Below, in pieces: positions 51,587-57,573 of a stretch of DNA of 64,000 nt. How positions within the stretch are numbered: the stretch's first letter is position 1; the number at the start of each line of letters is the position of its first letter. A program made the position numbers and the translations under genes. The notes under the pieces were generated by a model. It had not been told where the DNA came from. It was given only the letters and a program-made list of their open reading frames with translations, and did no database searches. This DNA is from a virus (lineage: Duplodnaviria > Caudoviricetes), in IMG/VR virus record IMGVR_UViG_3300033066_001396, positions 1 through 64,000 of that record. The stretch is one strand, 5' to 3'.

Positions 51587-52381
51587 ATGAAAACAATAAC
51601 ATTAGGACAGCTAAAACAATTACATGCCGCAGGTGAACTGGGTTCTTTTAATAGCAGAATTGATTTTGTATTAATAGATAACAGAAAAAACAGCGACGAT
51701 ACAGAAATAAACTTTGAAATAGATATGTTATGGTTAAAGACCGACAAACAAAGAGATCTGTTAACCCAATGGGGCTTTATAGAACCAAAATTTAAAGAGG
51801 GTGATTATATTATTCATCCAGAAGTTGGTTTTTGTAAAATAAGGACTATAATTGGGAATGCTATTGAATATGTTTATGAAGGAAGTACTTTGGTTTGTTC
51901 TATGCATATCGAGTCAGGTAATTGCAAAAACTCCCGACTTGCGACTCCGGAAGAAATAGAGGCCAATACCTTAATCAAATTAGAAGTAGGTAGTTATATT
52001 GTTGATCATTTTGGAAAAACAAACCAAATAGTATCAGTTGATTCAAGGGGATATGTTGAAGTTAAAAGAAAAGAAGGGTGGAATACGGCATTTTGGATTG
52101 GTAGTGACTTTCACAAAAAAGCAAAACTTGCAACCCCAGAACAAATAAAAGCATTCAATACCGTCTGGAATGAAGGTATTGAAGAAGCCCGTAAGTACAA
52201 GGATGGGCAACCGTGCTTGGTTAATTGCCTTAATAATCCCGGTGGTTGGTTTCTCAGATATGCAGACGGCAATGGTTTTTTTTATGATGCTTGTAAAAAA
52301 AGCGGGAAAACAATTATTACCTGGGATCGCCACATGCCACTAAACGAGACAACAATTAAAAATTTACCTGTAAATGAGTAA
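51587..52381 (+). CDS. Hypothetical protein with duplicated small beta domain
   Basis: FKEGDYI...RLATPEEI and LEVGSYI...KLATPEQI. Confidence 0.7.
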   Translation: MKTITLGQLKQLHAAGELGSFNSRIDFVLIDNRKNSDDTEINFEIDMLWLKTDKQRDLLTQWGFIEPKFKEGDYIIHPEVGFCKIRTIIGNAIEYVYEGSTLVCSMHIESGNCKNSRLATPEEIEANTLIKLEVGSYIVDHFGKTNQIVSVDSRGYVEVKRKEGWNTAFWIGSDFHKKAKLATPEQIKAFNTVWNEGIEEARKYKDGQPCLVNCLNNPGGWFLRYADGNGFFYDACKKSGKTIITWDRHMPLNETTIKNLPVNE

Positions 52382-54210: not shown

Positions 54211-54344
54211 AACCTACTATTGTCGATGTGGGTGGGTAAAATCATTTCCGCTAACGGAAAACGGCTTGCTGATGTCAGCACAAAAGTTTAATAAGTGTAC
54301 TTCTGTTGGTTTAAGCACATCAGCCCTGCTTTTGCCAACATAAT

Positions 54345-54568
54345 GTTGGGCGTAGTTTTTCTTATGGAAATTAAAATTGATAGAAACGAAGAAAGAATGG
54401 AAGTCAAAAAAATTAAGATTTTCACTCAAAATAAAGAGTTCACCATTTACATTGACAAGTTTGGTGAATTGATTGTAAACAAAGAGCAATACGGAAAGGA
54501 AGAAAGCGGCATTGTTGTTAGACCTAAAGTGTCTAATGAAATTGGGTTGTCTTAAAATTACGCCCAAC
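54345..54568 (+). mobile_element. Gene-cassette-like unit 1 bounded by complementary GTT.../...AAC core sites
   Basis: GTTGGGCGTAGTTTT (54345-54359) vs AAAATTACGCCCAAC (54554-54568): 14/15 inverted match. Confidence 0.6.
54364..54555 (+). CDS. Hypothetical 63-aa protein in cassette 1
   Basis: Likely start MEIKIDRNEE at 54364; stop abuts the inverse core site. Confidence 0.6.
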   Translation: MEIKIDRNEERMEVKKIKIFTQNKEFTIYIDKFGELIVNKEQYGKEESGIVVRPKVSNEIGLS

Positions 54569-54691
54569 GTTTCCGCTATGAGTAGTGGCGGTTTTGGAAC
54601 TACTCACTATCAAAATACAATAAATGACAATAGAAAGCACAAACGATAATAACAGCACGAACACCGCCATTACTTATAGCGATTGTTATGC
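54562..54691. repeat. attC-like imperfect hairpin
   Basis: GCCCAAC, then arm CGCTATGAGTAGTGGCGGT (54574-54592), loop, arm ACCGCCATTACTTATAGCG (54663-54681), then GTTATGC. Confidence 0.6.
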
Positions 54692-55730
54692 ACAGGTTTT
54701 TTCTCGTCTTTTTTTAGGGGATTGCCTTATTGAAAGCGATAAAATTGAAAATTATTCAGTTGATATGATTTTAACTGATTTACCTTATGGCACAACTGCT
54801 TGTAGTTGGGATGAGATAATACCATTTGAACCAATGTGGAAAATGTTTTACAGAGTATTGCGACCAAATGGATTTATAGTATTAACTGCTTCGCAACCAT
54901 TTACAAGTAAATTAGTAAGTAGTAATATTGAAAATTTTAGTCATAATTGGGTTTGGAATAAGAAGCGAGGAACTGGACACTTATTAGCTAAAAAGCGACC
55001 AATGATGGCAAGTGAAGATATAGTTGTATTTTCAAATGAATTAAAAAAACACGATAACACTGGAGAAAACCCTGTACGAGAATATTTAGTAAATGAGAAG
55101 AAAAAAAGCGGAATGACGAACAAGGATTTCAATTTGCTATTTTCAAAATACACTAATAAAGAAGGATGTATAAATAGAAGTGTGATTGAACATTATTGGG
55201 GTAAAGCACAATTTACATTTCCAACACAAGAAATTTATGAGAATGTATTGCAACCTACGGGGTATTTTCAACAACCATATTCATATATTTATGAAATAGG
55301 CAAACCATACAGAGAAAATAATAATAAACTACTTGGCGAAAAATACCCAAGAGTTTTTAACCCACAAATGAGAGAAAGAAATAAACCAAGATTATCAAAA
55401 AATAATGGTAATACAGAAGTGTATGGTAATCAAAATAAATTTAATGGTGAAATACTTGAGGAAAGTTATCCGATAAATATAATTGAATTTGATAAAAGTG
55501 GACATTCAAATATGTTGCACCATCCAACACAGAAGCCACTTGAATTATTAGAATACTTAATAAAAACCTATACCGATGAAGGAATGATTGTACTTGATGC
55601 AACAATGGGAAGCGGTAGCACTGGGGTCGCTTGTAAAAACAGTAACCGTTCTTTTATCGGCATAGAAAAAGACGAAGCATATTTCAAAATAGCAGAACAG
55701 CGAATAAATGCACGGACGCTGTTTTCTTAA
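54624..55730 (+). CDS. DNA methyltransferase (N4-C/N6-A, beta class) with internal insertion
   Basis: GDCL, LTDLPYGTTAC.WD, SQPFTS, HPTQKPLELLEYLIKTYT, LDATMGSGSTG, IGIEKD. Confidence 0.92.
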   Translation: MTIESTNDNNSTNTAITYSDCYAQVFSRLFLGDCLIESDKIENYSVDMILTDLPYGTTACSWDEIIPFEPMWKMFYRVLRPNGFIVLTASQPFTSKLVSSNIENFSHNWVWNKKRGTGHLLAKKRPMMASEDIVVFSNELKKHDNTGENPVREYLVNEKKKSGMTNKDFNLLFSKYTNKEGCINRSVIEHYWGKAQFTFPTQEIYENVLQPTGYFQQPYSYIYEIGKPYRENNNKLLGEKYPRVFNPQMRERNKPRLSKNNGNTEVYGNQNKFNGEILEESYPINIIEFDKSGHSNMLHHPTQKPLELLEYLIKTYTDEGMIVLDATMGSGSTGVACKNSNRSFIGIEKDEAYFKIAEQRINARTLFS

Positions 55731-55743
55731 ACTTGTGCATAAC
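54685..55743 (+). mobile_element. Gene-cassette-like unit 2 (MTase) bounded by complementary core sites
   Basis: GTTATGCACAGGTTT (54685-54699) vs AAACTTGTGCATAAC (55729-55743): 14/15 inverted match; visibly more AT-rich than its neighbours. Confidence 0.6.
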
Positions 55744-55824
55744 ATAGAGATTGACGAAATATGAACATACAACTAATTAGCAATAAACCAATTGTATTCC
55801 TAAGTTAAAAACAAAACACTACAT

Positions 55825-56472
55825 ATGAAATGTACAAGATGCGGCAAAGAAGCCTATAATCACCGCCGCTGTGATGCCTGCATAAGGAAATGGACTGACA
55901 TGAGAGCCACAATATGGGAAACCCTCACCATCAAATACGGAAAATTCTCCCCAGAGAACATCAAAGAATGGCAAAAGGAAACCAGAAAGCTCGAAAACAT
56001 ATGGAAAAAGGACGAAACCAAATTCACAGAAGCTATAAACAAAATCCACATGACAGACTGCTACTTCATCCCCTCAAAAGAATCCTCTTCCGCAACCATC
56101 TGCGCTAACTGCGGCCAAGAAAAAATGGTACACACCGCAGGCGAAGGCCTTAAAGCAAGTAAAGTCATCATGAACTTTACCCAAGAAGAACAAACAGAAC
56201 TCCAAAGGCTCTCAACTATCATCCACTACAAACAACCCACATATGACGACCTGGAAAAAGCCGACGCCCTTTCAAGGAAAAAAATTGGGTATCAACAGAG
56301 CCTCAAGCCAGTAACCCTTACGCGCATCCCCCATAAATTCAAAAAAATCCTTGTAAAAAAAGACGGTTCCACCTGGCACCTATCTAACTCCGAAGTAAAA
56401 GACTGGGAGAAAGCCGGCTCAATATCCCCGGGCGACATACTTTACCGAATAGTCACCGACACCCTTTACTAG
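55825..56472 (+). CDS. Hypothetical protein with CxxC motifs
   Basis: CTRCG..CDAC..CANCG; TAG stop directly followed by an in-frame ATG. Confidence 0.6.
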   Translation: MKCTRCGKEAYNHRRCDACIRKWTDMRATIWETLTIKYGKFSPENIKEWQKETRKLENIWKKDETKFTEAINKIHMTDCYFIPSKESSSATICANCGQEKMVHTAGEGLKASKVIMNFTQEEQTELQRLSTIIHYKQPTYDDLEKADALSRKKIGYQQSLKPVTLTRIPHKFKKILVKKDGSTWHLSNSEVKDWEKAGSISPGDILYRIVTDTLY

Positions 56473-56973
56473 ATGAAAAAAATTACAGCCAACGACATAA
56501 GCCGACAACTGATAGGGTGGGTGCAGTCTTCCGGAGCCGAAATATGCATACCCAACTACTACTACGGACCCTATGAAATGGACTTGTTCCGCCTTACAAC
56601 CTCTGGCTACGTATATGAATACGAAATAAAAGTATCGTTACAAGACTTTCGAAAAGACCTGGCAAAATCACAAAAGGTGTATAACCGGTCTGAAACAAAA
56701 AAACACGAGACAATGGCCTCAGGAACCGCAACACCCAACAAGTTCTATTTCGTCGTCCCAGAAAACCTAGTACCCCTAAAAGAGATCCCCCCATATGCCG
56801 GCCTCATCTGCTTCTGCAGATCCCGACCATTTCTAAAAACAATTAAGCCCGCCCCCTTTATTCACCGCAACCCATTCCCCCAAGACAACTATAAGAAAAT
56901 AGCTCTCTCCCTTTCCTGGCGCGAAATAAGACTGCGCTCAAAGATAATCAGACTCACAAAGCCTTCTACGTAG
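56473..56973 (+). CDS. MmcB-like PD-(D/E)xK nuclease-fold protein
   Basis: EMDLF...YVYEYEIKVSLQDFRKD, PNKFYFVVP, PPYAGLI. Confidence 0.7.
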   Translation: MKKITANDISRQLIGWVQSSGAEICIPNYYYGPYEMDLFRLTTSGYVYEYEIKVSLQDFRKDLAKSQKVYNRSETKKHETMASGTATPNKFYFVVPENLVPLKEIPPYAGLICFCRSRPFLKTIKPAPFIHRNPFPQDNYKKIALSLSWREIRLRSKIIRLTKPST

Positions 56974-57072: not shown

Positions 57073-57573
57073 TCACGAAAACCTTGCAAATTCACCACGA
57101 TGAATTACGCTAGCTTCAATATACGCCTTAGCAGCATCCCCTTTGTCATTATATCTCCCCAAATTTATAGTCTTCCCGTTAATGGATATTGCAGCAACCC
57201 ACCTCCTTTTCTCCCTACACCAAGATACTCCTTTATGCCCTGATGTATTTGTTCTTGTTATCCCACAGTTACTACTATTATCTGAATGAGTTGCTAATCG
57301 CAAATTCTCAATCCTGTTATCTTGCTTGTTCCCGTTAAAATGGTCTATCTGATACCCTTCTGGTATAGCCCCATAGTGCCATGACCATATAACCCTGTGT
57401 TCAAAATATCTAATACCATCTATTCCAAGTGATCTGTACCCCTTCCCTCTTACACTCCCTGTCCGATCTCCTTTTAAAACATTACCCCTACTTATCGCCC
57501 AAAACAACTTACCTTCTTGATAATTAAAAAGATATCTCAAATATTTAACATCCGGAAGAGCATTTATTTTCAT
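57073..57573 (-). CDS. HNH homing endonuclease with AP2 domain
   Basis: HRVIW, IDHFNGNKQDNRIENLRLAT, NTSGHKGVSW...WVAAI...LGRY. Confidence 0.9.
   Translation of the reverse strand: MKINALPDVKYLRYLFNYQEGKLFWAISRGNVLKGDRTGSVRGKGYRSLGIDGIRYFEHRVIWSWHYGAIPEGYQIDHFNGNKQDNRIENLRLATHSDNSSNCGITRTNTSGHKGVSWCREKRRWVAAISINGKTINLGRYNDKGDAAKAYIEASVIHRGEFARFS

Follow-up and report, generated by a model that had tools for sequence, protein, structure and literature searches.

The 64,000-bp window analyzed here is the first 64 kb of a linear virus record in IMG/VR (IMGVR_UViG_3300033066_001396; 124,566 bp, with an estimated completeness of 80%). Near 55 kb it carries two consecutive gene units, each preceded by an imperfect hairpin and bracketed by a pair of complementary 15-nt arms (Table 1). 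The evidence assembled below indicates that this region is probably a two-cassette array of an integron-like system which is widespread in Bacteroidota and their phages, and of which the same phage has a three-cassette sister array. The first cassette (cassette 1) contains a 63-aa open reading frame (ORF) that has no match in Pfam or PHROG, and the second (cassette 2) contains an N6/N4 DNA methyltransferase. The GC content of the cassette region is 0.35, against 0.39–0.43 in its surroundings.

Table 1. Features of array 1, with positions in the window.
Feature	Position	Strand	Details
Hairpin element 1, array 1	54241..54359	+	covariance-model match 45.6 bits, E 1.7e-8; 5' half degenerate
Extent of hairpin element 1			left boundary ..CCGCTAAC (AAC 54253-54255) to GTT 54345-54347, followed by the cassette 1 left arm
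Cassette 1 left arm	54345..54359	+	GTTGGGCGTAGTTTT; G at position 11
Cassette 1 gene, 63-aa ORF	54364..54555	+	own ATG 19 nt 3' of GTT
Cassette 1 right arm	54554..54568	+	AAAATTACGCCCAAC; T opposite G at position 11; starts within the TAA stop
Hairpin element 2, MTIEST type	54554..54699	+	covariance-model match 38.9 bits, E 6.7e-7
N6/N4 DNA methyltransferase, 368 aa	54624..55730	+	PF01555 1.7e-29 from residue 46; phrog_67 1.5e-63 from residue 28
Cassette 2 left arm	54685..54699	+	GTTATGCACAGGTTT; G at position 11
Cassette 2 right arm	55729..55743	+	AAACTTGTGCATAAC; T at position 11; starts within the TAA stop
Array 1 terminus, without hairpin	55744..55808	+	ATAGAGATTGACGAAAT, like the hairpin 5' stem arm ATTGNCGAA

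An earlier examination of these letters alone (the sequence-only reading) had described two GTT...AAC pairs complementary at 14 of 15 positions, a 19-bp imperfect hairpin between the units, and a more degenerate hairpin upstream (~54253–54347). All of these features were recovered, the pairs at exactly the coordinates it had given. Complementarity is 14/15 in the first pair, and in the second it is 14/15, or 15/16 if the arms are taken as 54684–54699 and 55729–55744. In element 2, the stem pairs 54574–54595 with 54660–54681 (19/22 complementary, with two G·T pairs on the sense strand) around a 64-nt loop that holds the methylase ATG, and the element runs from an AAC at 54566–54568 to a GTT at 54685–54687. 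A custom covariance model, which had been suggested as a check, matches both window sites, the degenerate one included. One detail has to be corrected: the right arms were said to finish in AAC exactly at the stop codon, and they in fact start inside the TAA (54553–54555 and 55728–55730), with AAC following 13 nt later.

Such pairs are not scattered through the phage. The whole record was scanned for 15-mers with a reverse complement at no more than one mismatch within 3 kb, and all 64 trinucleotide anchors were compared. GTT ranked first of the 64, with five pairs, each flanking a gene and all confined to two arrays, and a chance origin of the GTT...AAC pairs was rejected on this comparison. 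Array 2 lies beyond the window (75.4–78.5 kb) and has three pairs (75524–75538/77284–77298, 77413–77427/78114–78128, and 78263–78277/78477–78491), which enclose a gene for a C5 cytosine methyltransferase, overprinted with an HNH gene in a different frame, a unit of two ORFs, and a small ORF. Each of the five units has a single arm mismatch, always G/T at position 11. Both arrays have a hairpin upstream of every cassette, as many hairpins as cassettes, and none after the last cassette. Two array 2 hairpins score 115 and 68.9 bits against the covariance model, and the fifth phage site scores 12.9 bits, which is not significant; five elements are all that the record contains. A transposon or miniature inverted-repeat transposable element was also considered and was rejected, as arm sequence differs from unit to unit and no target-site duplications were seen.

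The hairpins belong to a large family, whose conserved hairpin of 120–150 nt is present in about 70 IMG/VR contigs. Searching IMG/VR with 16 bases of the 3' stem arm retrieved 84 stretches, and a 19-base version of the pattern retrieved more than 120 stretches from GTDB genomes, nearly all of them Bacteroidota; the GTDB matches are found in Chitinophagales, Sphingobacteriales, Flavobacteriales, Cytophagales, Saprospiraceae, and Ignavibacteria. The alignment and the covariance model were built from 110 related sites, with the consensus ..N4-T-N7-AAC / GGTTTGGGTATTGCCGAAGGCGGGG / ~75-nt loop / CCCCGCTTTTGGCAATACCTT / GTT-N7-G-N4... Conservation is bounded by the AAC at the start of the hairpin and the GTT at its end, and hairpins of identical sequence have a wide variety of arms on either side. 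Element 1 (54267–54347/54378) is 92–96% identical to the hairpins of loci L042, L016, L069, L023, and others, a homology that ends at the GTT, beyond which the arms differ. Similarly, element 2 is 87.5% identical to the hairpin of L056 over 54566–54701.

The stem of this hairpin is under selection for pairing. In the alignment, 99.4% of the stem cells are paired, double changes occupy 156 cells versus 32 in shuffled controls, and the signal is lost when the partner is shifted by one to three columns. In addition, two G·T pairs on the gene-sense strand are present in 110/110 and 109/110 sites, at positions where the extraction pattern allowed A or G; on the opposite strand they become C·A mismatches. 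The hairpins of the window and of five further loci have no matching Rfam family. Some features of the loop may be mentioned here. In the main hairpin type, the loop (alignment columns ~45–120) contains two to three tandem ~20-nt modules, (A/G)CAC.AA(A/T)GTT.AAT, which could act in protein binding or as contexts of a start codon (ACAAATG). No Bacteroidota promoter motif (TTTG / TAnnTTTG) was seen by eye on the hairpin sense strand, and no promoter scan was run. Scans for the sigma-70 consensus are ill-suited to Bacteroidota promoters. One hairpin subtype has TAATTTTG on its antisense strand.

The arms follow a rule of their own. Across 196 elements, 116 have a reverse-complementary 15-nt arm ending in AAC within 5 kb and with at most three mismatches, and 110 of these paired-arm units set a left-arm G against a right-arm T at position 11. 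Arms are otherwise gene-specific: their only common parts are GTT/AAC, a purine at position 4, and the G/T at position 11. The sequence-only reading had made its proposal depend on paired ends recurring around other genes, and they do so around the three array 2 units and around hundreds of genes elsewhere. The cassette 1 arms themselves bracket ORFs of varied length in L006, L016, L030, L042, L047, L062, L069, and L071.

The arms and the stem can be combined into a single structure. When the right arm of each phage unit was joined to the unit's own upstream hairpin, as in a circle, and folded with DNA parameters, 5/5 phage sites formed one continuous hairpin that was 3–12 kcal/mol more stable than in the array. 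The sense strand folded more stably than the antisense strand at all five.

Comparison of arms across loci shows which parts travel together. Near-identical hairpins (≥93%) share the downstream arm alone 42 times versus the upstream arm alone 2 times. Together with the position of the hairpin upstream of every phage cassette, this linkage indicates that the usual unit is C-hairpin-GTT-arm-gene-arm-AA. Individual units occur in unrelated contexts: a hairpin with its GTTAGGTGCAGTGCC cassette is 94–95% identical between L029 and L057, with unrelated sequence in the 150 nt on either side, and the C5-methylase unit of array 2 is common to L037 only between the hairpin AAC and the right-arm AAC, with hairpins 97% identical. 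Contigs of the source metagenomes connect the hairpin at 54566–54699 with three or more further upstream arms, and the sequences diverge at AAC.

It could be argued that no site-specific recombination takes place, and that the hairpins are conserved intergenic repeats between which homologous recombination shuffles genes. The model for this would be the PeSLs of T4-type phages, promoter and stem-loop repeats which flank small accessory genes in plastic regions and by which modules are shuffled through homologous recombination; the arrays resemble them in having repeated stem-loops beside accessory genes of a phage and modular gene shuffling. A phage without a recombinase could exchange genes in this way, hairpins are 75–100% identical between contigs, which is sufficient, and break points do occur on both sides of the hairpin. 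However, homologous exchange explains neither the gene-specific complementary arms with their fixed G·T pair at position 11 (110/116) nor the covariation of the stem and its invariant, strand-specific G·T pairs. It also leaves unexplained that breaks fall at AAC or GTT, and that array ends lie beside one recombinase family (see below). PeSLs are not known to have gene-specific complementary arms, AAC/GTT boundaries, or a dedicated recombinase. We therefore regard this account as improbable.

Some joints in the contigs, which skip 54360–54548 and 54366–54549, were considered as excision products and rejected: their sides are 20–23 nt long, and they most likely represent other cassettes with the same arms. 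In run X4, the left flank and cassette 1 are present at ~98% identity, most of the methylase and the right flank are uncovered, and no contig bridges them, which is uninformative either way. Close relatives were sought in IMG/VR by means of two neighboring proteins (55825–56472 and 51587–52381) and none was found; an exact search for the array terminus TTGACGMAATATGAACATACAAC returned no match.

The two phage arrays end in similar ways. Terminus-like sequence follows array 1 (55744–55760) and array 2, and in this record there is no recombinase gene beside either; the array 1 terminus, ATAGAGATTGACGAAAT, may be an attI-like half-site, given its resemblance to the 5' stem arm. The region downstream is common to both arrays (ATTGACG.AATATGAACATACAAC...) and opens a 65-aa ORF behind array 2, of which array 1 is followed by a 15-codon remnant (55761–55808). 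In the metagenome contig graph, the ends of arrays 1 and 2 are joined at 55750.

In bacteria, the arrays are associated with a recombinase. The covariance model finds 12–22 elements in each of five Bacteroidota genomes, in co-oriented arrays, and where coordinates were compared one end of the array has a tyrosine recombinase gene at a distance of up to ~3 kb. Among the 20 best recombinase loci, six have an element within 1.5 kb. The recombinase is present at 16 element loci, including the viral loci L031, L061, and L062. In L110, L122, L185, and L195, its 3' end lies ~100 nt past the terminal AAC, and the termini there read AAC + ...TATACGCAA. The array-end recombinase has an IntI-type N-terminal domain (PF13495), and its best model is NF040815 ("tyrosine recombinase/integron integrase"; 211–247 bits). 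The integron-integrase model TIGR02249 scores ~200 bits (cut-off 265), in two pieces that leave positions ~181–237 unmatched, and exceeds its cut-off in only 2 of 39 element-bearing genomes. To judge from these profile matches, the array-end enzyme is a Xer/IntI-like tyrosine recombinase that falls below the integron-integrase cut-off. The search for a tyrosine recombinase that the sequence-only reading had recommended thus succeeded beside bacterial arrays and failed in the phage record.

These matches bear on whether the region is instead a true CALIN (cluster of attC sites lacking an integrase), whose ordinary attC sites a canonical host IntI would create and move, as proposed for phage CALINs in a recent study (Qi et al., 2023; PMC9892861). 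The AAC-hairpin-GTT layout is compatible with it, and GTTGGGC, GTTAGGC, and GCCTAAC fit classical core sites. The attC architecture, R''(..AAC)-spacer-L''-variable loop-L'-spacer-R'(GTT..), is present, and the internal loop that separates the R box from the L box is asymmetric. From 7-nt box to 7-nt box the window sites measure ~102 and ~130 nt, and the family measures ~120 nt from AAC to GTT, which lies at or beyond the top of the usual attC range (about 57–141 nt). The best DNA match of the window methylase, Polaribacter phage P12002L, also obeys the arm rule, and is listed in that study with a CALIN and methylase cassettes (PMC9892861); the same 15-nt arms are found there, GTTGGCAGTAGTTTT / AAAATTACTGCCAAC, with G/T at position 11. 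In the same study, IntI1 recombined five of six phage sites (PMC9892861). However, P12002L_attC1, a short-loop site of the same layout between two methylases that was found by HattCI only, is the sole tested site of this hairpin type, and is reported as the one not recombined by IntI1 (PMC9892861). In addition, the integron-integrase model exceeds its cut-off in so few of the element-bearing genomes, and leaves the center of the array-side recombinase unmatched. IntegronFinder 2.0 surveys found almost no integrons in Bacteroidetes (PMC9024848), in contrast to the 12–22 elements per genome detected here. Finally, the hairpin's linkage is with the gene that follows it, and it is the sense strand that can fold. 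A true CALIN is thus an unlikely explanation.

Of the integron attribution made by the sequence-only reading, the integron-cassette-like units with attC-like sites at their bounds are supported. A classical integron is not: besides the recombinase score and the result for P12002L_attC1, only 2/5 left arms fit GTTRRRY (GTTGGGC and GTTAGGC; GTTATGC, GTTATAT, and GTTAGCA do not), and the only core bases conserved across the 110 sites of the family are GTT and a purine at position 4. The system is a variant of the integron principle and not a classical IntI/attC integron.

A close parallel is with sedentary chromosomal integrons such as that of Vibrio cholerae, with its ~125-nt VCR sites. Both line up small accessory-gene cassettes in one direction, and the hairpins between the cassettes are long, imperfect, and homogeneous and are bounded by ..AAC / GTT... 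In both, the start and end of a cassette are complementary, as expected of a circular intermediate, and a tyrosine recombinase of the Xer/IntI branch is found at one array end, where the site has no hairpin. However, the recombinase here has the low score and unmatched center described above, and the arms are 15 nt long (not 7), with an invariant G·T pair at position 11, beside a stem with two invariant G·T pairs on the gene-sense strand. A classical cassette has its attC behind the gene and crosses over at G|TT, whereas here the hairpin is linked to the downstream gene, in mirror image. The hairpin, unlike that of chromosomal integrons, can encode a start codon and a leader. The host phylum also differs, being nearly integron-free in surveys (PMC9024848).

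Phage arrays of a related kind have been described: Qi et al. (2023; PMC9892861) report CALINs in virulent phages and note their methylase cargo. The arrays studied here are alike in being attC-like clusters without an integrase that carry orphan DNA methyltransferases. The sites are treated there as classical attC sites for IntI1, and the parts consulted do not describe the 15-nt paired arms, the G·T rule, the Bacteroidota hairpin family, the Xer-like recombinase, or the hairpin start codon (PMC9892861). Similarly, literature searches found no paper on the hairpin family, the arm rule, the Xer-like recombinase, or a hairpin-encoded start in Bacteroidota.

The sequence-only reading had placed the methylase ATG and its first ~20 codons in the loop and right arm of the hairpin, with the enzyme core after the GTT, and this description is correct. 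Residues 1–21 are encoded by the loop and the 3' stem arm, and residues 21–26 by the left arm. The ATG at 54624 is the sole canonical start in frame, with no other ATG, GTG, or TTG before the conserved LGDC motif. Homology begins at residue 46 for the Pfam N6_N4_Mtase domain and at residue 27–28 for the PHROG family, which is five to six codons past the GTT. The arrangement recurs elsewhere: a 17-mer of the element 2 loop, ATGACAATAGAAAGCAC, is present in 34 IMG/VR stretches, and in nearly all cases that have a hairpin the ORF from the MTIEST ATG crosses the 3' stem arm, then the left arm, and enters the next gene, the stem arm being read as AITYSEC or, in another frame, as PPLLIA.V. Behind MTIEST hairpins, 15 of 16 different genes are in frame with the loop ATG, where about one-third would be expected if this ATG were irrelevant; they include several N6/N4 methylase families, one C5 methylase, and unrelated small proteins. 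In a second subtype, a GTG start is formed by the last two spacer bases and the G of GTT, as in the C5 methylase of array 2 (L001:3523), whose Pfam homology starts at residue 7.

This is not a property of the whole family. In the main hairpin family, an in-frame ATG is found only inside the hairpin in 17 elements, inside it and after it in 21, only after the GTT in 32, and in neither place in 19, and 81 elements have no sense ORF of at least 45 codons. Reading frames thus indicate that the hairpin supplies the translation start for particular hairpin types. The sequence-only reading had proposed that the recombination site donates a translation start to incoming ORFs. The in-frame start is real in such subtypes, but it is mostly the cassette's own and not the gift of a resident site, because the hairpin usually travels with its gene (42 versus 2). 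A partial parallel is the attI site of class 1 integrons (ORF-11 and similar), a recombination site with translation-initiation signals that aid cassette expression. That site is fixed and carries a short leader ORF, whose translation is coupled to the first cassette only; by contrast, the hairpin here is borne by the cassette, and its ATG and ~20 codons are fused to the protein. Two genes (L229:5811-6725 and L242:2287-2901) keep the MTIEST...AITYSE leader, with the 5' half of the upstream hairpin gone, and look like fossil cassettes in which the leader is now part of the gene.

A translated hairpin also raises the question of a role in RNA. The hairpin would then be a translated leader or a device of translation control, base-pairing between the arms would join the 5' end of each gene's transcript to its 3' end, for processing or stability, and gene turnover would be a side effect. 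The conserved wobble pairs on the sense strand, which would be G·U in RNA, are in agreement with such a role, as are the start codon in the loop, the translated stem arm, and the sense orientation of the gene in 5/5 phage units. However, a sense ORF of at least 45 codons is missing behind about half of the elements, and the next gene is antisense in the bacterial loci inspected. There is no Rfam match, pairing over up to 3.4 kb is unusual in mRNA, and neither the recombinase association nor the presence of whole units in unrelated contexts is explained. We consider that RNA function is hardly likely to be the primary role.

The integron-like reading can be formulated as a mechanism. On the gene-sense strand, a unit consists of C, a 100–150-nt hairpin, GTT with a 12-nt gene-specific arm, one or more genes, the complementary 12-nt arm, and AA. 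When it is circularized, its arms would pair over 15 bp, with the fixed G·T at position 11, and would form with the hairpin stem one long folded site. This single folded gene-sense strand would be the substrate of the Xer/IntI-like tyrosine recombinase. The cut would fall at AA|C, and units would be inserted or excised at the hairpin-less array end, at AAC and a ATTGNCGAA-like half-site. Since the phage record has no recombinase, exchange would require one supplied by the host or by a second phage in the same cell. Cassette shuffling in this phage is a prediction of the model. Lying upstream of the gene, the hairpin also serves as its leader, and in the element 2 type it provides the start codon and ~20 codons from the loop and the 3' stem arm.

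Several observations weigh against this reading. A PF00589 search found no tyrosine recombinase in the 124,566-bp record (~80% complete), so that the absence of an integrase noted by the sequence-only reading beside its attC-like, integron-cassette-like units extends to the entire record. Only 16 of ~200 element loci hold a recombinase within the DNA retrieved. The stem G·T pairs would be G·U in RNA, which makes a transcript role conceivable. Behind the GTT, 81 of 170 elements, mostly bacterial, are without a sense ORF of at least 45 codons. Many of these are followed by a conserved, unpaired GTTAGCGGTTCGTTG, as hairpins are in many Bacteroidota genomes (L087–L206, e.g., L101, L113, L134, L144, and L201), and no partner arm was found for it at three or fewer mismatches within 5 kb; there is one 11/15 partner, in L144. 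The GTTACCTGCTGTGCC cassette is 96–99% identical between contigs, with upstream hairpins just 69–83% identical, and breaks fall at both GTT and AAC; the two kinds of break point imply that the unit boundary is not unique, or that hairpins are exchanged separately. Finally, neither an excised circle nor an empty site was found, nor a close relative of this phage that differs in its cassettes; the public runs were covered as assembled contigs, which are blind to rare joints. The 15-mer GTTAGCGGTTCGTTG is conserved at the DNA level, without keeping a single reading frame, and where inspected the sequences behind it read as diverse antisense genes.

The cargo of the arrays is rich in DNA modification genes. 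Among 67 distinct cassette ORFs of viral contigs, 24 are DNA methyltransferases (16 N6_N4, 5 C5, 2 MT-A70, and 1 N6-adenine), and the others include a SpoU methylase, a PAPS-reductase-like protein, DUF4326, and HNH. This composition suggests that the cargo would serve as a swappable anti-restriction kit of orphan DNA methyltransferases.

A broader proposal, to which we give a slight preference, is that these arrays represent an undescribed branch of integron-like systems, defined by a Xer-like recombinase without the IntI insertion, a folded gene-sense strand, a 19-bp stem together with a 15-bp cassette-specific stem, three fixed G·T pairs, and an upstream site that encodes the translation start. 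To phages it would offer a library of DNA-modification (anti-restriction) genes, open to exchange and common to them and the arrays of their hosts. Integrons are the textbook case of gene capture and are held to be near-absent in Bacteroidota and rare in phages. A parallel system with another recombinase, another site grammar, and another gene orientation would widen the reach of gene capture at hairpin sites, and would account for integron-finding software missing these arrays. Classical integrons express captured genes from one shared promoter; a site that encodes a start codon and a leader would be an alternative answer, in which each captured ORF arrives ready for expression. The system would also provide a concrete mechanism for the fast turnover of orphan methyltransferases, and hence for host range relative to restriction systems. 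The fixed G·T pairs would offer a direct handle on strand choice by the recombinase.

Several sequences around the two arrays deserve mention. At 56479–56493, the start of ORF 56473–56973 contains AAAATTACAGCCAAC, which has 13/15 identity to the right arm of cassette 1 and a T at position 11; it may be the orphan arm of a lost cassette, or chance. Upstream of array 2, GTTAGACAACGTAAA lies 10 nt before an ORF (L001:2046-2060; genome 74045–74059), without a hairpin or a partner arm, and may be a decayed cassette boundary. A gene with HNH_3 and AP2 domains, of the homing-endonuclease type, lies two genes 3' of array 1 on the opposite strand (57073–57573, −), and P12002L has an HNH homing endonuclease at the equivalent site behind its methylase array. 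In array 2, the C5 methyltransferase gene (L001:3397-5298; genome 75396–77297) contains in another frame a 215-aa HNH endonuclease ORF (L001:4509-5156; 76508–77155). The methyltransferase frame is open across this ~650-nt insertion, and the homologous cassette of L037 is ~700 nt shorter.

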